DNA of 64,000 nt from Parcubacteria group bacterium Gr01-1014_3 (GTDB taxonomy: Bacteria; Patescibacteriota; Minisyncoccia; UBA6257; WO2-44-18): the NCBI GenBank assembly GCA_007376445.1, contig VMGF01000002.1, positions 13,673 through 77,672 of the forward strand, read 5' to 3'. Each line of letters opens with the position of its first letter. Within the stretch, counting starts at the first letter, position 1. The notes below the pieces were generated by a model that searched no databases, was not told where the DNA came from, and saw only the letters and a program-made list of their open reading frames with translations. A program made the position numbers and the translations under genes. This document shows positions 32,504 to 43,075 of this stretch, in pieces.

Positions 32504-34543
32504 TTAATGTTCAGCTCGGCCGATGACTCCTCGGCGATTGGGCATCATGCCACCACCGAGGATCAGGCTCAAGTCGATCATGTCAATTGATGCAATGCCA
32601 TTTTCATATATATCCATCGCCTCAAGCCACATCTTTGACAAAATAGTTTCTCTAATCGCGACTATTTCGCCGTGTAGTGAATGTTTCTTTTTTGGCATAA
32701 TATCGAGTCGCTTTGCGAATTCATAGTTAGGCTTCACGGGCTTGCCGTTCTTCCAAATATAGAATCCCTTGCCGGTCTTCGTTCCAAGCGTGGACTTATC
32801 ATCCGCGATCTTGAAGTCTTTCAGATCAGGCAAGCTCTTCGGATAAGCTGCCTGCATCATCTTCATTACATGAGCTCCCGTATCAAAGCCAATCAGGTCG
32901 AGGGTCTTAAACGGCCCCATCATCATGCCACACATCTCGAACGCCTGATCTAACATCCAAAGATTCGGTCTACTCGGCCAATAACTGACATTAAAGATGC
33001 TTTGCATCAGATACTGCGTCATCACGCGATTCACCAGAAGGCCGACGCATTCTTTATTCAGAACCACCGGCGTTTTGCCCATCGCTCGCGTCAGATTTAA
33101 AACCTTCGCGATAATTTCAGGATTCGTCTGCTTGATGCCGGCGATCTCTACCAGGTCCATTTTGTGGGCCGGATTGAAGAAGTGCATCGCGCAGAAATTT
33201 TCCGGATGCAATAACACCGACGCGATCTCGCTGGGAAGAAGCGAAGAGGTGTTGCTAACAAGTATCGCGCCAGGGCGAGTCAATTCTTCAAGCTTCGTGA
33301 ACAGTTTATGCTTTTCCGCCATATCTTCCACAATCGCTTCGATCACTATATCGCAACGACTCAGAAGGCTATGGAAAGTCTCGCCGTAACCGACCGTCAG
33401 CCGGTTGCGTGTTTCTTCTGCCACTCCCTTAATCATTTTTCCCTTCTTAACTTCACGCGCCAGCTCGTCTTCAATGAAGCGGACTGCTTTGTGAATCGAG
33501 GGGACATAGGTGTCGTGGAGATAAACTTGCTTGTTATGAGCGGTCAGCGCGGCATAAGCGATGGTGCTACCCATCACGCCCGCGCCGATAACTCCAACGA
33601 CATCCAGAGGATAAACCTTAGCCTCAAGTGGCGTCGCTTTCCTCGCGTCCTTACGGACAAAGAAAAGATCGATCAGATTTTTCGCTTCGGGGGTATTGGC
33701 CGCCTTGACGAAAAGATCGCTTTCCTCGTTCAGTCCCCGAGACAATGACTTAGAGCTAGCGCAAACCGCTTCAAGAGCAAGTAGCGGAGCAGGGTAAACG
33801 CCCTTCGTCGCTTTCAATGTCGCTTTGCGAGCCATTGAACAAACCAGCTTCTTTCCAAAAGGTAACCGTTCTAAGAATGAGACCTTACGCTTCACCGGAA
33901 GGAAAAAGTCCAGTATAACTGTTCCGAAATCGAGCTCTTCGATTGCTAATGCTTCCCATTTATCAACCAGAGAGTCGGCTAAGCCATACTGCTTCGCTTC
34001 CTTCGCCGAAAGCTTTTTGCCTCCGACGATCACCTTGATAGCATTTTGCATGCCAACGAGGCGCGGGAGAATTTGAGTTCCGCCAAAGCCAGGAATAATT
34101 CCCAGCTGGGTTTCAGGAAGTCCCAAACGAGTCTTCGGATGATCAATCACGAACCGGTAATGGCAAGCCATAGCCAGTTCCAAACCACCGCCCAGACACT
34201 CGCCAGCAATCAATGCGATGATCGGATAAGGAGCTTGCCGGATCTTCATCAGAATCTCATGCGCGCGATTTAGGAGTTGTTTGAGGTTAGAGGGATCATT
34301 AACGATCTCGCGTATCTCATCCACGTCCATACCGGCGCAAAAACTTTCAAACTTACTGGACCGGATAACCATTACTCTGGGATGATCCGTTAAGTTCACA
34401 TCCAGAACCTGATTTAGTTCCTCAAGAGCTTGCTTAGAAAGCGTATTTTGTTTTGCCTCCGGACCGCAATCAAGAGAAAGAATCCGTAGTCCTTCGCGTA
34501 TCGAAGTTCGGTATTGCCATTTCGTCAGCTTTAAGTCTTCCAT
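32504..34543 (-). CDS. fatty-acid oxidation alpha subunit: enoyl-CoA hydratase + 3-hydroxyacyl-CoA dehydrogenase (FadB/FadJ-like)
   Basis: Crotonase fold at the N-terminus. NAD-binding VIGAGVMGSTIAYA. 3HCDH C-terminal repeats. Confidence 0.9.
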   Translation of the reverse strand: MEDLKLTKWQYRTSIREGLRILSLDCGPEAKQNTLSKQALEELNQVLDVNLTDHPRVMVIRSSKFESFCAGMDVDEIREIVNDPSNLKQLLNRAHEILMKIRQAPYPIIALIAGECLGGGLELAMACHYRFVIDHPKTRLGLPETQLGIIPGFGGTQILPRLVGMQNAIKVIVGGKKLSAKEAKQYGLADSLVDKWEALAIEELDFGTVILDFFLPVKRKVSFLERLPFGKKLVCSMARKATLKATKGVYPAPLLALEAVCASSKSLSRGLNEESDLFVKAANTPEAKNLIDLFFVRKDARKATPLEAKVYPLDVVGVIGAGVMGSTIAYAALTAHNKQVYLHDTYVPSIHKAVRFIEDELAREVKKGKMIKGVAEETRNRLTVGYGETFHSLLSRCDIVIEAIVEDMAEKHKLFTKLEELTRPGAILVSNTSSLLPSEIASVLLHPENFCAMHFFNPAHKMDLVEIAGIKQTNPEIIAKVLNLTRAMGKTPVVLNKECVGLLVNRVMTQYLMQSIFNVSYWPSRPNLWMLDQAFEMCGMMMGPFKTLDLIGFDTGAHVMKMMQAAYPKSLPDLKDFKIADDKSTLGTKTGKGFYIWKNGKPVKPNYEFAKRLDIMPKKKHSLHGEIVAIRETILSKMWLEAMDIYENGIASIDMIDLSLILGGGMMPNRRGVIGRAEH

Positions 34544-35813
34544 TACTCACCCCTTTCCAGGCAAGCGGCGACACCCTGGCCGCCGCCAACACAAAGAGTA
34601 ACCAATCCGCTCGTCGCGCCGGTAAGCTCAAGTTCCTTGGCGCAGGTAAGCACCAGGCGAGCGCCACTCGCGGAAATCGGATGGCCAAGCGCGATCGCGC
34701 CGCCGTTCCGGTTAACTTTTTCCGGCGAAAGCCGGCCGAAGTTATCCTTAACCAATTCAAATTCTTTCTGCTGGGCCAAAACGACCGCGGCAAAAGCTTC
34801 GTTGGTCTCGATCACATCAATATCGTCGAGAGTGCTCCAGTCATGGCTAAAGATTTGCTTGATAGCCTGAACCGGGCCAAGGCCCATTCTTTCGGGCACA
34901 CATCCACCAATCGAAGAAAATCTTGAGTACATAGTCGCCAGGAGCGGCCAGCCATTTTTCTTGGCCAGCTCTTCGTTAACCACCATCAGCGCGACCGCGC
35001 CGTCCGTGATCTGAGAAGAATTTCCTGGCGTAACTGTGCCGCCCTTGTGGAGAGGTCGCAGTTTACTAAGAGCCGACAGATTCTGGTCGAAACGAATTCC
35101 GTTGTCCTGATCGATACCGCGGAACGGTACGATCTCGTGCTTCAGACGGCCGGAAAGCGTTGCCGCCTTCGCGCGCCGCTGAGATTCGAGAGCGAACAAG
35201 TCCTGCTCTTCGCGAGAAATCTTGTACTCCTCGGCAATCTGATCCGCGATCTCGTCCATACCCAGTTTACAAACCGGATCGGTCAGACCGATCTTGATCG
35301 ACCACTCCGGCTTATGCGGCATCATTTTCATTTTTGTCCACTCCTTCATTAAAGAAGGAAGGCGGCGCCACATCGGCGCCTTCTTGCGCGAAACCTCGTA
35401 AAGTTTCGCGAATTGGGCTCGCTGTTGGCGATTGTAGACCGCGACGTAGTCCGACATCACTTCTGATGCCACCACTAGGATGCATTTGTACAAACCAAGC
35501 TCAACATTCTTTACCGCGTCGAGCACGGCGTGAAGCCCGCTCCCGCAGTTAATGTTAACCGTCCAGGCCGGAATTCTTGGGTCGAGTCCTGCCTTGAGCA
35601 AGATCACTCGCGCCAGATTCGAGCCGTCCGGGTGAAGCACCTGATTGCCAATATTGGCGCCAACCACGCAATCACAAGATTCCTTCAGCTTCGGATAACG
35701 CTTAAAAAGCTCGCCAACCGGCGTCAAAGCCATCTCGCTCGCGGAAAGATCAGGAATTGTTCCCGCCTTCAAAAACGGCGTCCGCACTCCATCAACGATC
35801 ACTGCCTTGTTCA
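34543..35813 (-). CDS. acetyl-CoA C-acyltransferase (thiolase, FadA-like)
   Basis: GTG start at complement 35811-35813 after AAGGAG (MNKAVIVDGVRTPF). Active-site Cys context NINCGSGL. C-terminal GGGQGVA. TAATG overlap with the next gene. Confidence 0.85.
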
Positions 35814-35935
35814 CAAGGCGTCTCCTTAAATAGGTTTTTAAAATGTTAAAAAACCAGATAAATAGTACTAAAAATAACCCCTTTTGGCAAACCGGGAAAA
35901 TAGTGATATATTGTACTCGGTTCTTTAAGAGGTGA

Positions 35936-36427
35936 ATGATGACCGACCCAAAGCTTCGTGAGCTTGAGAAGAAGGTTAATGAACGCAAGAAGCTCGTTGA
36001 ACGGATCATGGTTTTTGTGGAAAAAGTCCTTGTAAAGCATGGCAAGGAGACATACCGCTATGAGGGGTCTTGCCATACCAACACGAAATACGAATTAAAA
36101 GCAGGGAAGTTTTTACTAAAGGGTAGTTTTGGCCAAACCCAAATGGGAGGTAATAATGTTTACATTCTTTATAAAGATAAAGAGGTTTTCCAGGTTTACT
36201 ATCAAGCCAACCTGGATGAATGTCGGGTTGATGTTTTTGAAAATGGAGCTTGGTTACCAGCCTTCCAGAAGTTGATGCATAATTTCAAAGAGGTGATTGC
36301 GAGAGTTAATAAGAAACAGAAAGACAGCGCCAGTAAATTAGAAAATAAATCGTTGATTGAAGAAAAGCGCAAGCAACTTCTAATCAAAGCTAAGCGACTT
36401 GGCTTGCCTACCGACGGGCAAGCCTGA
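35936..36427 (+). CDS. hypothetical protein
   Basis: RBS GAGGTG. Own terminator at 36427-36452. No domain recognised. Confidence 0.4.
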   Translation: MMTDPKLRELEKKVNERKKLVERIMVFVEKVLVKHGKETYRYEGSCHTNTKYELKAGKFLLKGSFGQTQMGGNNVYILYKDKEVFQVYYQANLDECRVDVFENGAWLPAFQKLMHNFKEVIARVNKKQKDSASKLENKSLIEEKRKQLLIKAKRLGLPTDGQA

Positions 36428-36499
36428 CCGCGGAATAATCCGCGGTTTTTTTATTTCAAAAATAAAACCGCCTACAAAAAGTAGGCGGTTAATTTTTTT
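36427..36499. terminator. pair of hairpin terminators (gaccgcggaataatccgcggtttttt and aaccgcctacaaaaagtaggcggtt) between convergent genes
   Basis: Two GC stems, each followed by T-runs; the second has T-runs on both strands. Confidence 0.65.
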
Positions 36500-36833
36500 A
36501 TTCCTTAATTCCGAAAAGTGTTTTAAATTCTTCTTCCGTTAAACCAAGCTTCTGCAGAATTTCTTTCTTCTTCCTTTTTATTTCAGCCGCTTTCTGCTCG
36601 GCGACAAGCTTCGCCTTGGCATCATCAGCCTCCGCTTTTTCCTTGGTCTTCTTATTTTCCTTATATTCGTCCCACCACTTCTTCAACCCCGGAGAAAACA
36701 GCTTTTCAAGTTTAAGTAATTCCAATTGTTCACAGAGAGGCGCTAGCAGATCATGATATTCCTTAGACAACTCCCGACACGCTTGGCCGACCGCGCGCCG
36801 CTCATTGCTTTCCCGACTAACACCGAAAGCCAT
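36498..36833 (-). CDS. hypothetical protein, Lys/Glu-rich C-terminal half
   Basis: Preceded by a gccgaaaggc hairpin plus AAGGAG leader. No domain recognised. Confidence 0.4.
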   Translation of the reverse strand: MAFGVSRESNERRAVGQACRELSKEYHDLLAPLCEQLELLKLEKLFSPGLKKWWDEYKENKKTKEKAEADDAKAKLVAEQKAAEIKRKKKEILQKLGLTEEEFKTLFGIKE

Positions 36834-36861
36834 ACCTGCTCCTTTCTGCCTTTCGGCTCAG

Positions 36862-37613
36862 TTAAGAACTAAACTCCGATTTGATGTAGTTTTCGAGAGT
36901 GGTCAAATCAAAGCTCGCGATTAATCTACATTCCTTACCATCCCAGCCGATAACTAAGGGGTCTATATTTAGACGACCCTCTTCCCAGGCGGCTTCTGTG
37001 ACGACAAAAACTTTATGCACATGCCATTTAGTATGTCCATTCGTTGTACACTCAGTAAAATCAAGTTGTTTAAATTCTTCTCTCGCAGTAAGAATTTTTT
37101 CACGAATTTCATATGGAATAAGCCCCTTGAATTCCATTGCCAAGTTCAATCCTCTACTTTTAGAGGGTACTATTTGAACTAAACCATCCAACATAGCCTC
37201 GCGGATAGCGTATGGCAGTCCCATGGGATATCTGATATAACTACTATTCTCTATTTGGCATACTGCTTCATAGTCATGTTCGGCGAATGGATCAAAAATC
37301 GCCAAACTTGGGAATCCCTTTTTATTTCTCCACTTAAAAACATGCGTGGAAAGCTTAGTGGGATACTTGAGTGAAATCTTTTGTTTAATTAGCTTCGGCA
37401 GGCGATTATCTATGGATTCAATACTCTTTCTGATTTTTGTTTTAGCGTGGAATTCAATTGCTAATAGCTGGTCGAGCTTCCTCTCTAAAAATTGCTTTTC
37501 TTTTATCAACTTATCGATTTCATCAATAACTTCTTCTAACTTCTCTTTCTGACTAACTTCTTTTGAGCAATACTTCAATGCCTCTTTAATAGGATTAGTA
37601 GTAATTTCGGTCA
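36862..37613 (-). CDS. hypothetical protein (~250 aa), N-terminal coiled coil
   Basis: Start trimmed to ATG at complement 37611-37613 after a gccgaaaggcagaagggagc leader (MTEITTNPIKE…). Confidence 0.4.
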
Positions 37614-37917
37614 TCGCTAGCTCCCTTCTGCCTTTCGGCATGTAAATGAACTTGCAATAAAATACCATTTTATATGGATTACGTCAATTCAAAGAAAACG
37701 CCCATCTCCACAAGGGGACAGGCGTTTTCTAAGAATAAAATATTCACAACGAGAAATTATCTGTCCCTAATGGGTTGGATTTAGCACCTTACGGTAAAGC
37801 AGGTTGCTGGAGCTTCATAGGGCCAAGACCCTCGGCTCACTCTTGATAATATTTCGTTGTCAAAGTTCAAGTGCTTATTACAACCGCTATCCTATCAGAT
37901 TGGTTTCCTTAGGTCAA

Positions 37918-37945
37918 TTGACAAACTTAGTTTATATGATATAAT
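37918..37945 (+). promoter_or_regulatory. near-consensus sigma70-type promoter (TTGACA-N16-TATAAT)
   Basis: ttgacaaacttagtttatatgatataat lies 45 nt upstream of the ATG at 37990. Confidence 0.5.
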
Positions 37946-37989
37946 ACACGGAGTTCAAAAAAAGAATCCAAAACACAGGAGGTGACGCG

Positions 37990-38358
37990 ATGGAATTATT
38001 CGAGAGACTTTGGGAAGAAATGCAGGAAGCATTTCGCCGTCGTAATCTCTTTGCGGCGATCAAGGTTTTGAGGTTTTCCACGCCAATAACGATGGGGTTA
38101 AAGGAAACCAAGAATTATGTCGAGCGCTATTGGAATATGGATGGTGGACTAGAGGCCATGAAAGCCGACCTCATGATCCAGCTCGGCATTGAGTCTCCTG
38201 CCACGGAAGAGAAGAAAAGTGTTGAGGAAATCGCTGCCATACTTCAGGGCATAAAGGTCGTACAAGATGAGAACTTCGCTCTGACAGTAAAGAAGGAAGT
38301 TTCCTGGGATCAGATGAACGAGTTTTTTGCCAAAGCAGCTCGAGAATTGGGATTCTAG
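37990..38358 (+). CDS. hypothetical protein with ribosomal L7/L12 C-terminal-domain-like motif
   Basis: AAIKVLRFSTPITMGLKETKNYVE matches the L7/L12 CTD signature (vIKvvReiTGLGLKEAKDLVd). RBS AGGAGGTG. Confidence 0.4.
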   Translation: MELFERLWEEMQEAFRRRNLFAAIKVLRFSTPITMGLKETKNYVERYWNMDGGLEAMKADLMIQLGIESPATEEKKSVEEIAAILQGIKVVQDENFALTVKKEVSWDQMNEFFAKAARELGF

Positions 38359-38423
38359 CATCCAGCGGCGAAGATTAATCTTCGCCGCTTTTATTTTTCT
38401 AATTTTTTGGTATAATCAAGCGA

Positions 38424-39494
38424 ATGAAATTAAGTATCGGCATCGTGGGGTTGCCAAACGTCGGTAAGTCCACCTTGTTTAAAATCCTCACGAAAAACGA
38501 GGTAAATATCGCCAATTATCCATTCTGCACCATTGATCCGAATGTGGGTGTGGTTAGCGTACCCGATGAACGGCTGGATCAGCTCGCCAAGATGAGTAAG
38601 TCGGCTAAGATCATCCCAGCGATCGTGGAATTTTATGATATTGCCGGTCTGGTCAAAGGCGCTAACAAAGGCGAAGGTTTAGGTAATCAGTTTTTAACTC
38701 ACATCCGCGAAACCGACGCGATCGTAATGGTACTCCGGGTATTTAAAAATGAAGAAATCATCCACGTGGAAAATTCCGTGGATCCGATCCGCGATATGGA
38801 AATCATCAACACCGAGCTAGCCCTGAAGGACTTGGAATCGGTGGAAAAACTTTATAAAAAAGCGGAAGGCGAGTCTAAGATCGGCGGTACGCCGGCGCAA
38901 AAACAAGCAATTAAAGATTTTGAAGCCGTCAAAAAAATTAAATCAGTCCTGGAAGCCGGTCAAAATTTAAATACTCCGGAATTTGCCGAAGCCTTGGAGA
39001 ACGAAAAAGTTGCCGCGTTAAATTTGCTCTCCGGAAAAAAGCAGATCTATTTACTCAACGGAAAACTCGAAGATGTCTCCGAAGAATTAAAAAAGAAGAT
39101 CGCGGAGAGGCTTGCCCGCAGTAGCTTCAGCGAAGGCGGGGGAGGATATGTGATTATGGATTTATCTATAGCCACCGATATACCGGAGCTAGTTAAAAAG
39201 GCCTACGAAGTGCTCGGCCTAATCAGCTTCTTTACCACGGGCGAAGATGAGACCCGCGCCTGGACTATTAAGAAAAACAGCAAAGCTTCGCAAGCCGCTG
39301 GCGCGATCCATACTGATTTTGAAAAGAAATTCATCCGCGCGGAAGTAGTTAACTGGCAAAAATTACTCGAAGCCCATTCGGCGAGCTCAGGGCAAGCCGG
39401 TTGGTCCGCCGCCAAACAAAAAGGCTGGATGCGTTTAGAGGGTAAGGACTATATCGTACAGGATGGCGATGTTATGGAGATTAGGCATGGCTAG
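38424..39494 (+). CDS. ychF: ribosome-binding ATPase YchF (Obg family)
   Basis: GIVGLPNVGKSTLF. TGS-like C-terminus. ~356 aa. Confidence 0.9.
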   Translation: MKLSIGIVGLPNVGKSTLFKILTKNEVNIANYPFCTIDPNVGVVSVPDERLDQLAKMSKSAKIIPAIVEFYDIAGLVKGANKGEGLGNQFLTHIRETDAIVMVLRVFKNEEIIHVENSVDPIRDMEIINTELALKDLESVEKLYKKAEGESKIGGTPAQKQAIKDFEAVKKIKSVLEAGQNLNTPEFAEALENEKVAALNLLSGKKQIYLLNGKLEDVSEELKKKIAERLARSSFSEGGGGYVIMDLSIATDIPELVKKAYEVLGLISFFTTGEDETRAWTIKKNSKASQAAGAIHTDFEKKFIRAEVVNWQKLLEAHSASSGQAGWSAAKQKGWMRLEGKDYIVQDGDVMEIRHG

Positions 39495-39820: not shown

Positions 39821-40093
39821 TTAGGCGACTTGCCGGGTCGATTCGTCTTCGTCGAGAAGGCTCTTCACGTCCTCGACGCTCTTGAAATCGGTCACCAGAG
39901 TCGTCCAGCCTTCGAGTTCGGAAAGGGTGATCAACACCCTCTTGCCGAGCTTCTCTTCGATGTACGGCGGATACTCTCGATCCTTGGGCTTGCGGAACGT
40001 CATCGTCACCGGCCTCGACCTGTTGTCCTTGTCACCGGCGTCGCGGCCACCACAAAGTAGCACTTCCAGCGCGCCAAACATGAGCTTCTTCAT
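39821..40093 (-). CDS. small secreted/lipoprotein-like hypothetical protein
   Basis: MKKLMFGALEVLLCGG signal/lipobox-like N-terminus. RBS GGAGGT. Terminator downstream. Confidence 0.4.
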   Translation of the reverse strand: MKKLMFGALEVLLCGGRDAGDKDNRSRPVTMTFRKPKDREYPPYIEEKLGKRVLITLSELEGWTTLVTDFKSVEDVKSLLDEDESTRQVA

Positions 40094-40296
40094 CTGAAAC
40101 CTCCAAAAAAAGTTCTGCCTGTATTATAGACTAGAACTGTTATTCTGTCAAGCGCCATTCTTACGGCCTAATTCGTGCAAATATGTCCTACGTCTTATGG
40201 TCTAATTCCCGCCAGAGGCGGGCAAGCGTACGAATGGGCGAATAAGGAGGGGATAGTGGAATTTCGACTTTACGAAGTTTCGATTATAATGAATAC

Positions 40297-40744: not shown

Positions 40745-43075
40745 ATGTATAACGCACTTTTAATTTCTTTCGGAATTCCGCTGGTAGTTTTTCTGATCGG
40801 AATCGGCGTAGCCGTGGCGGTTAAAAATCACCGGAAAAGATTTCTTGGAGTTTTAAATTTAAAACCCCTGATTGTCACGCTACGTCAGAAAACCGATGGT
40901 GATAAAAAAGATCCACTCGCTGAAATCAGCCTTTCCAGTCAGCTTTTTAGTTTACTGACCAACCTCAAAAATCCCTTCTCACTCGAACTTGCCGTGCATA
41001 ATGTTGGCGAAGACATTCATTTTTATATTTCCGTGCCGGAAGATTCGATCGATTCGGTGAGCCGTCAAATTCAAGGACTATGGTCCGAGGCGGATGTGCG
41101 GAAAGCGGGGGATTACACTATTTTTAATTCCGGCGGAGTGGCCCGCGTGGCATTTTTAAAACAAAAGAATCATTACGCTCTTCCGGTCCGGACTTATACT
41201 GAAGCTGGTCTGGACACCTTTTTAACTATCCTGAATAATTTTTCCAAGGTAGAGATGGTAGGGGAGGGTTTGGCTCTCCAGGTAGTGGCGAAACCGGCTC
41301 AATCCAGCACGGTAAAAAATATAGACAGGATGATCATGGGGCTTAAAAAAGGCGTGAAGTTATCCGATGCCTTGAATGGCAAAGTTTCACTGCCAACGCC
41401 GAAAAAAGATGAAGTAGCGCCACAAATCATTGTTGATGAAGAAGCAGTCAAAAATCTGATCTCCAAGATCTCTAAACCGCTTTTTGAGGTGAATGTGCGC
41501 CTAGTCGCGTCCGCTATGTCGGCTTATCGCTCAGAGGAACTTTTAAATAACTTAAGCGCCGCCTTTTCTCAGTTTACCGCCCCAAACCGGAATGAATTCA
41601 AGGTTAATGAACCGGCCAATCCTTCCAAGCTGATTTTTAAATATATATTCCGCCAGTTCGATTCCTCAGAATCGATGACTCTAGGCGCCGATGAATTAGC
41701 GAGCATATTTCATTTCCCAACTTCCACCACCGAAGTTCCGAAGGTTAAATGGCTTAAATCTAAAGAGGCCCCACCGCCAGCCGTCTTGCCGGAAAATGGC
41801 GTGGTGATCGGCGAAAGCCGCTTCCGAGGCGAAGTTAAAACCGTCAGAATAACCGACGAAGACCGCCGGCGCCATGTTTATATCATCGGTCAGACGGGTA
41901 CCGGTAAATCCACCCTGCTTATCGAAATGGCCGCTTCCGATATCGCGGCTGGAAAAGGTTTGGCCGTCATCGATCCACACGGCGATCTGATTGATTCTAT
42001 CCTTGCCCACATCCCAAAGAATCGGGTGGATGATGTGGTGGTATTTGATCCGGGTGATACCGACCGGCCACTTGGTTTGAATATGCTTGAGTACAACCCA
42101 GCGCGACCGGAGGAGAAAACTTTTATCGTCAACGAGATGCAGAGTATTTTCAATAGACTTTTCACCGCTGAAACCATGGGCCCGATGTTTGAACAGTACA
42201 TGCGGAACGCGCTTTTGCTTTTAATGGATGACCCAAATGAAAAAGCGACCTTAATGGAAATTCCCCGCGTGTTTACCGATGCCGAATACCGGAAACGGCT
42301 GATCGCCAAGGCGAAAAATCCGGCGGTGATTGATTTCTGGGAAAAGGAAGCCGTGAAAGCCGGTGGTGATGCTTCGCTCGCGAATATGACGCCTTACATC
42401 ACTTCGAAATTCAACAATTTCACATCCAACGACTACATCCGGCCAATCATTGGCCAGCCGGTGTCAGCCTTTAATTTCCGGAAGATCATGGATGAAGGCA
42501 AAATCCTTTTAGTTAATCTTTCGAAGGGCAAGATAGGGGATATCAACTCCAATCTTCTGGGCATGGTAATCGTTGGTAAAATTCTGATGGCCGCGCTGTC
42601 CCGCGTGGATCTGCCACAAGAGCAGAGAAAGGACTTTAACCTGTACATAGATGAGTTCCAGAATTTCACCACGGATTCTATTTCCACGATTCTTTCCGAG
42701 GCCCGGAAATATCGTCTGAACTTGATAATCGCGCACCAATTTATCGGCCAATTAAATGAAAAAATCCGGAACGCGGTGTTTGGCAACGTAGGGGCGCAGA
42801 TAGTCTTCCGGGTAGGGGCCGAAGATGCTGATTTTCTCATAAAACAGTTCGAGCCGGTCTTTTCCAAGCAGGATCTGCTTAATATTGACAATTTTAATAG
42901 TTATGTTAAAATGCTCGTGAACGGTCAGACAACCAAGCCGTTCAACATAGCGCTATTGGCGCCTAATAAGGGAATCCCCGGTTTAAGCTCAAAATTAAAG
43001 GAATTATCGAGATTAAGATATGGTAAGCAAAGAGCGGAAGTAGAGGGGGATATCCTGGGGCGTTTAAGGGGCTAA
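40745..43075 (+). CDS. membrane-anchored P-loop ATPase of the FtsK/HerA superfamily (VirD4/TraG/DUF87-like)
   Basis: N-terminal TM. Walker A YIIGQTGTGKSTLL. DPHGDL. Walker B-like LYIDEFQNF followed by ARKYRLNLIIAHQFIGQL. ~370-aa N-terminal region of unknown function. Confidence 0.55.
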   Translation: MYNALLISFGIPLVVFLIGIGVAVAVKNHRKRFLGVLNLKPLIVTLRQKTDGDKKDPLAEISLSSQLFSLLTNLKNPFSLELAVHNVGEDIHFYISVPEDSIDSVSRQIQGLWSEADVRKAGDYTIFNSGGVARVAFLKQKNHYALPVRTYTEAGLDTFLTILNNFSKVEMVGEGLALQVVAKPAQSSTVKNIDRMIMGLKKGVKLSDALNGKVSLPTPKKDEVAPQIIVDEEAVKNLISKISKPLFEVNVRLVASAMSAYRSEELLNNLSAAFSQFTAPNRNEFKVNEPANPSKLIFKYIFRQFDSSESMTLGADELASIFHFPTSTTEVPKVKWLKSKEAPPPAVLPENGVVIGESRFRGEVKTVRITDEDRRRHVYIIGQTGTGKSTLLIEMAASDIAAGKGLAVIDPHGDLIDSILAHIPKNRVDDVVVFDPGDTDRPLGLNMLEYNPARPEEKTFIVNEMQSIFNRLFTAETMGPMFEQYMRNALLLLMDDPNEKATLMEIPRVFTDAEYRKRLIAKAKNPAVIDFWEKEAVKAGGDASLANMTPYITSKFNNFTSNDYIRPIIGQPVSAFNFRKIMDEGKILLVNLSKGKIGDINSNLLGMVIVGKILMAALSRVDLPQEQRKDFNLYIDEFQNFTTDSISTILSEARKYRLNLIIAHQFIGQLNEKIRNAVFGNVGAQIVFRVGAEDADFLIKQFEPVFSKQDLLNIDNFNSYVKMLVNGQTTKPFNIALLAPNKGIPGLSSKLKELSRLRYGKQRAEVEGDILGRLRG

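Follow-up and report, generated by a model that had tools for sequence, protein, structure and literature searches.

The stretch of Parcubacteria DNA analyzed here (64 kb, hereafter the window) contains a 122-aa open reading frame on its plus strand at positions 37990-38358. An earlier note on this DNA had singled out this frame as a stand-alone gene whose product carries a motif resembling the C-terminal domain (CTD) of ribosomal protein L7/L12. The frame is present exactly where the note had placed it, and the peptide that the note quoted, AAIKVLRFSTPITMGLKETKNYVE, forms residues 22-45 of the protein (nt 38053-38124). The product is 100% identical to the MAG hypothetical protein G01um10143_464 of Parcubacteria group bacterium Gr01-1014_3, a member of the Candidate Phyla Radiation (CPR). 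We refer to it as the hairpin protein, and to its gene as the hairpin gene (Table 1).

Table 1. Features of the hairpin gene and its product in the window, and of the 47-aa ORF at related loci (positions in the window unless a locus is named).
Feature	Position	Strand	Remarks
Sigma-70-type promoter	37918..37945	+	TTGACA, 16-nt spacer, TATAAT, TG upstream of -10; 12/12 matches
Shine-Dalgarno site AGGAGG	37978..37983	+	7 nt 5' of ATG
CDS, 122 aa	37990..38358	+	dN/dS 0.17-0.31 vs orthologues; 8-member family
N-terminal four-helix domain, residues 1-65	37990..38184	+	H2-16, H20-30, H37-48, H53-64 (AF2)
L12-type hairpin module, residues 10-45	38017..38124	+	end of helix 1, helix 2 (= L12 alpha4), loop with 2-residue insertion, helix 3 (= L12 alpha5)
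Variable-length acidic hinge, residues about 66-87	38185..38250	+	predicted disordered; segment pI 4.3
C-terminal beta-beta-alpha mini-domain, residues 88-122	38251..38355	+	E89-93, E96-100, H106-119 (AF2)
Intrinsic terminator	38364..38389	+	11-bp stem, 7 G-C pairs, T-run; directly 3' of stop codon, between hairpin gene and ychF
47-aa Cys-rich ORF	L004 444-587	+	downstream of family gene, tightly spaced
47-aa Cys-rich ORF	L005 399-542	+	upstream of family gene, own promoter and terminator
47-aa Cys-rich ORF	L010 529-660	+	upstream of family gene

The expression signals of the hairpin gene are strong and conserved. Perfect TTGACA/TATAAT promoters occur twice in the 64-kb window, compared to 0.02 expected by chance, and one of them precedes the hairpin gene, as expected from the earlier note's description of a strong promoter. 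A promoter of the form TTGACA / TGnTAtAAT is found before the gene at all seven orthologous loci that could be read, and the GGAGG core of the Shine-Dalgarno site is kept in all orthologues read. Terminator hairpins lie 3' of the gene in L001, L003, L005, L006 and L009, with stem sequences that differ between loci. Comparison of the gene with its orthologues gave dN/dS values of 0.17-0.31 where synonymous sites are unsaturated, indicating purifying selection (about 0.2). We conclude that 37990-38358 is a real, strongly signalled, monocistronic gene, because the open reading frame is accompanied by a Shine-Dalgarno site, a perfect promoter and a terminator, because these signals recur at seven orthologous loci and because the gene is under selection. 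It stands alone, as had been claimed, between its own promoter and terminator. Two minus-strand ORFs that overlap it (37932-38111 and 38149-38361) were rejected as spurious; the plus-strand frame is the one that fits purifying selection and the expression signals.

The product is a small, mildly acidic, cytoplasmic protein, and it is probably abundant. All eight members of the family described below have a pI of 5.0-5.7, and inspection of the family sequences by eye shows neither a signal peptide nor a transmembrane segment. This acidity and the absence of visible membrane or export signals favor binding to protein over binding to nucleic acid.

Directly downstream of the hairpin gene is ychF (38424-39494; MMR_HSR1 and YchF-GTPase_C), the neighbor that the earlier note had named. 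The gene is directly 3' of the family gene in five of the six other members with a readable downstream flank (L001/L002, L003, L005, L006-L008 and L009), and this linkage is lost in L004, the most divergent member. The upstream neighbor of the family gene differs between loci although ychF stays downstream. A terminator always precedes ychF, which is driven by an extended -10 promoter of its own and is a separate transcription unit. The genomes in which the two genes are linked are close relatives (YchF 77-94% identical), and they share a broader synteny in which a FadB-like gene, a thiolase gene, the hairpin gene and ychF are followed further on by a gene for a T4SS-coupling-protein-like product. 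In E. coli, YchF contacts the 50S subunit at uL14, bL19 and H62 and does not bind the stalk (PMC11814078). Because the linkage occurs among close relatives with broad synteny, involves separate transcription units and is lost in L004, and because of where E. coli YchF binds, the ychF linkage is weak evidence for a functional connection.

Several other features of the region were observed. ychF is apparently leaderless: only 7 nt separate the end of its extended -10 element (TGgTATAAT, 38408-38416, plus strand) from the ATG at 38424, and the region (38408-38426) lacks a Shine-Dalgarno site. The same arrangement (..TATAATCAAGCGA(T)ATG) is kept in L001, L006 and L009. A role for E. coli YchF in regulating translation of leaderless mRNAs has been reported (PMC8138138). 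The other perfect promoter of the window (TTGACA-N17-TATAAT, 40123-40151, minus strand) drives a 90-aa ORF (39821-40093, minus strand) that is convergent with ychF and has no Pfam or NCBIfam match. Three genes 3' of the hairpin gene, past ychF and two small ORFs, is a gene (40745-43075, plus strand) for a 776-aa VirD4/TraG-like type IV coupling-protein ATPase (T4SS-DNA_transf, TrwB_AAD_bind and TraG-D_C). On the other side, 32504-35817 (minus strand) encodes a FadB-like fusion (enoyl-CoA hydratase and 3-hydroxyacyl-CoA dehydrogenase) and a thiolase, which look like a beta-oxidation or butyrate-type pair; such a pair is noteworthy in a Parcubacteria genome of reduced metabolism. Both the ATPase gene and the FadB-like/thiolase pair are kept in L003.

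The divergent intergenic region beside the hairpin gene contains a full-length SAM-I riboswitch (RF00162; 37754-37852, minus strand; 69.7 bits, E 3e-14), followed by a G+C-rich, terminator-like hairpin with a T-run (~37735-37700, minus strand). The riboswitch-controlled ORF (36862-37614/37668, minus strand) encodes a hypothetical protein of ~250 aa that belongs to no Pfam or NCBIfam family, and beyond it lies a second ORF of unknown function (36498-36833, minus strand). Coupling of the hairpin gene to the riboswitch was considered and rejected, since the riboswitch, encoded on the other strand, acts on the divergent gene. Neither of the syntenic loci L003 and L006 has the riboswitch-controlled genes, and the G+C content of the stretch from ~36000 to 38000 is 0.37-0.42, versus ~0.45-0.55 in its flanks. 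In L006, a 158-aa gene that is homologous to the 163-aa gene of the window (35936-36427) sits directly upstream of the small gene. The stretch from ~36000 to 38000 is probably a recent insertion that carries the riboswitch-controlled genes.

The hairpin-protein family is tiny and occurs only in close relatives of one Parcubacteria lineage. When 1.84 billion representative proteins were searched exhaustively with a two-member profile of the family, six relatives (107-120 aa) were identified. One further relative was found among 5.8 billion proteins by a word-indexed search, bringing the family to about eight members, and scans of genome and metagenome contigs with the family alignment yielded no confirmed further relatives. 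The family also evolves rapidly. Compared to L006, dN is 0.29 for the hairpin gene and 0.04 for the adjacent ychF, a difference of about 7-fold. Fast evolution, together with some eight members in 5.8 billion proteins, is more in keeping with an accessory, lineage-specific role than with a core role in translation.

In one sub-clade of the family (P0006, P0007 and P0017), the gene adjoins an ORF for a 47-aa Cys-rich mini-protein (…HCSRCGGEKDxEGWCANYC…) that is 83-91% identical among these members. The ORF is directly 3' of the family gene in L004 and is on its other side in L005 and L010; the L010 contig stops 27 nt past the stop codon of the family gene. The ORF is absent from the 64-kb window and from L001, L003, L006 and L009. 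The mini-protein may be a partner of the family in this sub-clade.

The predicted structure of the hairpin protein has three parts (Table 1). An AF2 model based on the eight-sequence alignment (mean pLDDT 77.6, pTM 0.55) has an N-terminal domain of four helices, and a single-sequence model predicts the same helices. The mean pLDDT of 10-residue blocks is 73-93 for residues 1-60 and 69 for residues 61-70. The hinge that follows has pLDDT values below 50 at residues 70-85, and in the window protein it contains an insertion of ~8-10 residues that is unique in the family alignment. In the C-terminal beta-beta-alpha mini-domain, block means are 80-91 for residues 91-122 and 54 for the block 81-90, which includes strand 1. 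This mini-domain is the best-conserved segment of the family (VSWDQMNEFFAK), and a profile of it had no match in the PDB. Searches for relatives of the whole protein gave little: the best Foldseek match of the single-sequence model in the PDB had an E of 0.9, Foldseek against the viral BFVD and PADLOC on all eight members gave no matches, and PHROGs on all eight gave one weak match, for one member, to a family of unknown function (phrog_26927, E 0.007).

The direct match between the hairpin protein and L12 is marginal. BLASTP against E. coli L12 gave 32% identity over 66 columns at a pairwise E of 0.002. The N-terminal domain matched positions 14-36 of the 67 positions of Pfam PF00542 with 12.5 bits (E 0.2), below the gathering cut-off of 25.9. 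The full-length protein had no PF00542 match at E<=10 and nothing significant in Pfam, NCBIfam or the PDB sequences. PF00542 is matched by three of the eight family members (best member, E 0.0085), and is the sole Pfam family matched by more than one of them.

Profile comparisons point more clearly to L12. Aligned to E. coli L12 with hhalign, the family covers L12 residues 63-91 at an E of 1.5e-4. A profile of the family N-terminal domain, compared to 177,635 PDB sequences, ranked bL12 first and second (E 0.07-0.09), and L12 accounts for 9 of the 18 matches listed, always at L12 residues ~63-90 and in the same register. Apart from the family itself, the search of 1.84 billion proteins returned nine proteins (E 2.4e-8 to 4e-4 for the whole library), all of which contain multiple copies of the L12-type hairpin. 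These 2-5 copies have the 35-residue consensus xExxxLLxxGxKIxAIKLVRExTGxGLKEAKxYVE. Five of the nine repeat proteins were scanned with PF00542 and scored 59-106 bits, at positions 9-40 of the 67 only. The repeat module serves as a bridge that links the family solidly to L12. The eight-member family aligns to it by hhalign with a probability of 97.7% (E 1.9e-12, 34 columns, query residues 10-45), and a profile of the module finds L12 in the PDB at an E of 3e-9, with L12 making up all of the top 14 matches.

The ~35-residue module (a helix, G-x-K-I-x-A-I-K-L-V-R, a loop, and G-L-K-E-A-K-x-Y-V-E; in shorter form, a helix, N-K, a helix with AIKxxR, a loop and a helix with GLKEAKxYVE) is present in the hairpin protein. 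Among 692 ORFs of the window, a module HMM matched the hairpin ORF alone (31.5 bits, E 4.6e-9; runner-up, 4.1 bits), in a test that is not fully independent, as the sequences behind the HMM had been collected with the family profile; the same HMM independently matches L12 in the PDB. The best of 5000 shuffles of the hairpin protein scored 9.8 bits against it. Based on this chain of profile matches, from the family to the 35-aa repeat module and from there to L12, the hairpin is homologous to helices 4-5 of bL12, or at least related to them specifically, and its closest relatives are the 35-residue repeat modules. The L7/L12 motif noticed earlier thus reflects a relation beyond chance, as the profile chain and the shuffles indicate. 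It is not the position-by-position match that had been described, because the L12 alignment requires a 2-residue insertion in the loop between the helices. The Tyr of KxYVE is common to the hairpin protein and the repeat modules; L12 has Leu at this position.

The repeat proteins are frequent in Actinomycetes (Actinophytocola, Catellatospora and Thermomonospora), Chloroflexi and Cyanobacteria. Those that we collected (P0008-P0016 and P0020-P0116) are automatically named 'ribosomal protein L7/L12' by NCBI and JGI and have partial PF00542 matches, with or without PF20593 (DUF6793). Most of the proteins read among P0008-P0016 have an N-terminal transmembrane helix. The 'L7/L12' naming is likely a systematic mis-annotation of a module family, because each repeat matches only positions 9-40 of PF00542. 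A protein search found no informative fused domains in the repeat proteins. One repeat-protein locus (L011), with an HSP70-like gene upstream and rpsF-ssb-rpsR downstream, was uninformative. A literature search found no paper characterizing the multi-hairpin repeat proteins or DUF6793.

The factor-binding surface of L12 helices 4-5 includes residues K65, V66, I69, K70, R73, L80, K81, E82 and K84, and R73 and K84 are surface residues that face the factor. Arg28 and Lys41 of the hairpin protein, the equivalents of R73 and K84, are invariant across the eight-member family. The equivalents of I69 and L80 are conservatively kept across the family, and that of V87 is kept as well. The window protein additionally keeps the equivalents of K70, G79, K81 and E82, and is the only member with G-L-K-E-x-K, which explains why its motif stood out in the earlier note. 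In the family, the K70 equivalent is Ser in three of eight members, and the K81 and E82 equivalents vary, being kept in the window protein only. The L12-factor interface is therefore not preserved as such. The residues corresponding to V66, I69 and L80, which are exposed hydrophobics in L12, may be buried in the predicted four-helix domain.

We postulate that the hairpin protein is an adaptor between proteins, with two domains tethered by the hinge. Its hairpin domain would bind a partner using the face that contains the invariant Arg28, Lys41 and Tyr43, and the C-terminal mini-domain would bind something else or self-associate. We estimate the probability of this general adaptor reading at roughly 0.55. 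Helices 4-5 of L12 bind helix D of EF-Tu and other factors (Kothe et al. 2004; Diaconu et al. 2005, both as cited in PMC12179292). By analogy with these helices, the likeliest class of partner would be the P-loop NTPases that act in translation (EF-Tu, EF-G, IF2 or YchF), although we regard this specific class as less likely than not.

A rival reading, which takes up the earlier note's idea of competition for translational GTPases, makes the protein a soluble mimic of the stalk CTD that is abundant and acts as a decoy, competing with bL12 for EF-Tu, EF-G, IF2 or RF3, or as a regulator of YchF, and so tunes translation. The hairpin would contact the G domain either of a translational GTPase or of YchF, the neighboring ATPase, and the hinge-tethered beta-beta-alpha domain would anchor or dimerize the protein. 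The hairpin does correspond to the factor-binding helices of L12, the window protein keeps I, K, R ... G-L-K-E-x-K, the expression signals are strong, and adjacency to ychF is kept despite a rearranged upstream side. However, the AF2 fold is not that of the CTD, ychF is a separate transcription unit behind a terminator, its adjacency is lost in L004, and the ribosomal contacts of E. coli YchF lie elsewhere than the stalk. Factor mimicry is further weakened because the equivalents of K81 and E82 vary in the orthologues, and we consider the decoy unlikely. A better alternative to the adaptor, possible though clearly less probable than it, is that the hairpin is a structural building block only, derived from a common helical module, in a protein with a lineage-specific role unrelated to translation, such as partner of a small protein or regulator of a neighboring function. 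In favor of it are the lack of conservation of the contact residues K81 and E82, a best-conserved segment that is the family-specific beta-beta-alpha domain, and a family that is fast-evolving and very narrowly distributed. The 47-aa Cys-rich ORF, which always adjoins the gene in one sub-clade, suggests a different partner, but this ORF is missing from the window and from four of the other loci (L001, L003, L006 and L009), and the invariance of Arg28 and Lys41 speaks against the reading.

Two further readings concern the hairpin itself. The alpha4-turn-alpha5 unit of L12 was reportedly likened to DNA-binding helix-turn-helix (HTH) motifs by Rice and Steitz in 1989, and some repeat proteins have weak MerR_1 matches, so the hairpin could serve as the DNA-reading HTH of a small regulator. 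But all members are acidic (pI 5.0-5.7), no Pfam HTH family scores above threshold, and the loop is variable and has a 2-residue insertion, making this reading less probable still than the decoy. That the motif arose by chance in a spurious or unrelated ORF would agree with the failure of the full-length protein to match Pfam, NCBIfam or the PDB significantly. This reading is refuted by the profile chain and the 5000-shuffle test, and the gene is conserved and under selection; we give it almost no credence.

If the hairpin still binds translational GTPases, then the protein would be an off-ribosome user of the factor-recruiting surface of the stalk, and it would provide a pointer to the function of the multi-hairpin proteins that are automatically labelled 'ribosomal protein L7/L12'. 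If the protein were indeed a stalk mimic, it would allow a CPR bacterium with a small genome to titrate or to deliver translation factors away from the ribosome, for instance when growth is slow. The widespread membrane-anchored multi-hairpin proteins mislabelled 'L7/L12' might, in the same way, be factor-recruiting scaffolds. Apart from function, the eye-catching L12 motif reflects real but partial homology, and the family delimited here is tiny, restricted to Parcubacteria and new in its domain arrangement. Neither the hairpin protein nor the repeat proteins should be read as L12 paralogues.

How does the hairpin protein compare to known systems? With the bL12 CTD (PF00542; e.g., E. coli 1CTF and T. 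maritima 1DD3) it has in common a helix-turn-helix of ~25-29 residues, corresponding to L12 residues ~63-91. The bL12 CTD has a complete beta1-alphaA-alphaB-beta2-alphaC-beta3 fold of 67 positions, whereas the hairpin protein lacks this fold and matches only these ~25-29 positions. In the AF2 model, a long helix takes the place of strand beta1 before the hairpin, a fourth helix follows the hairpin, and there is no beta2-alphaC-beta3. The loop is 2 residues longer than in L12, and Tyr replaces L86. The predicted fold is all-helical up to the hinge and the beta-beta-alpha domain, unlike that of the CTD. The earlier note had spoken of a free copy of the CTD, a description that is not supported given the extent of the match and the different fold. 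The N-terminal L10-binding and dimerization domain of bL12 is also absent, in that hhalign aligned L12 residues 63-91 only and Pfam gave no Ribosomal_L12_N match. Similarly, the order of parts differs: in the AF2 model the hinge follows the hairpin domain, and in bL12 a hinge precedes the CTD. The gene for bL12 is located in an rplJ-rplL (rpoBC) cluster, whereas the hairpin gene is monocistronic and has ychF on one side and a hypothetical gene under SAM-riboswitch control on the other; no rplL was found within the 64-kb window by tblastn with E. coli L12. Because every alignment ends at the two helices and the AF2 fold differs, we conclude that the hairpin protein is neither an L12 C-terminal domain nor a stalk protein.

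Phages also encode stand-alone proteins annotated as 'ribosomal protein L7/L12 C-terminus domain', for example gp258 and gp259 of Streptomyces phage Riptide (PMC12509530). Like the hairpin protein, these are non-ribosomal and stand-alone, and a role for them in translation is speculative (PMC12509530). The hairpin protein has no detectable relation to them by PHROGs or BFVD, and its gene is chromosomal and syntenic among relatives.

The repeat proteins of Actinomycetes, Chloroflexi and Cyanobacteria are the nearest comparison. They contain 2-5 near-consensus copies of the module, whereas members of the hairpin family have one divergent copy that is below Pfam detection. Most repeat proteins have an N-terminal transmembrane anchor, and the hairpin family has no hydrophobic N-terminal segment. 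Unlike the repeat proteins, the hairpin family has an additional fourth helix and a unique beta-beta-alpha C-terminal domain. The two groups have in common the 34-35-residue module, its preceding helix and the Tyr of KxYVE, and both have Pro/Ala/Glu-rich linkers between the modules and other parts. As to identity, it is well supported that the hairpin protein belongs to the L12-hairpin module class as a divergent, single-copy and lineage-restricted member with a new two-domain architecture.
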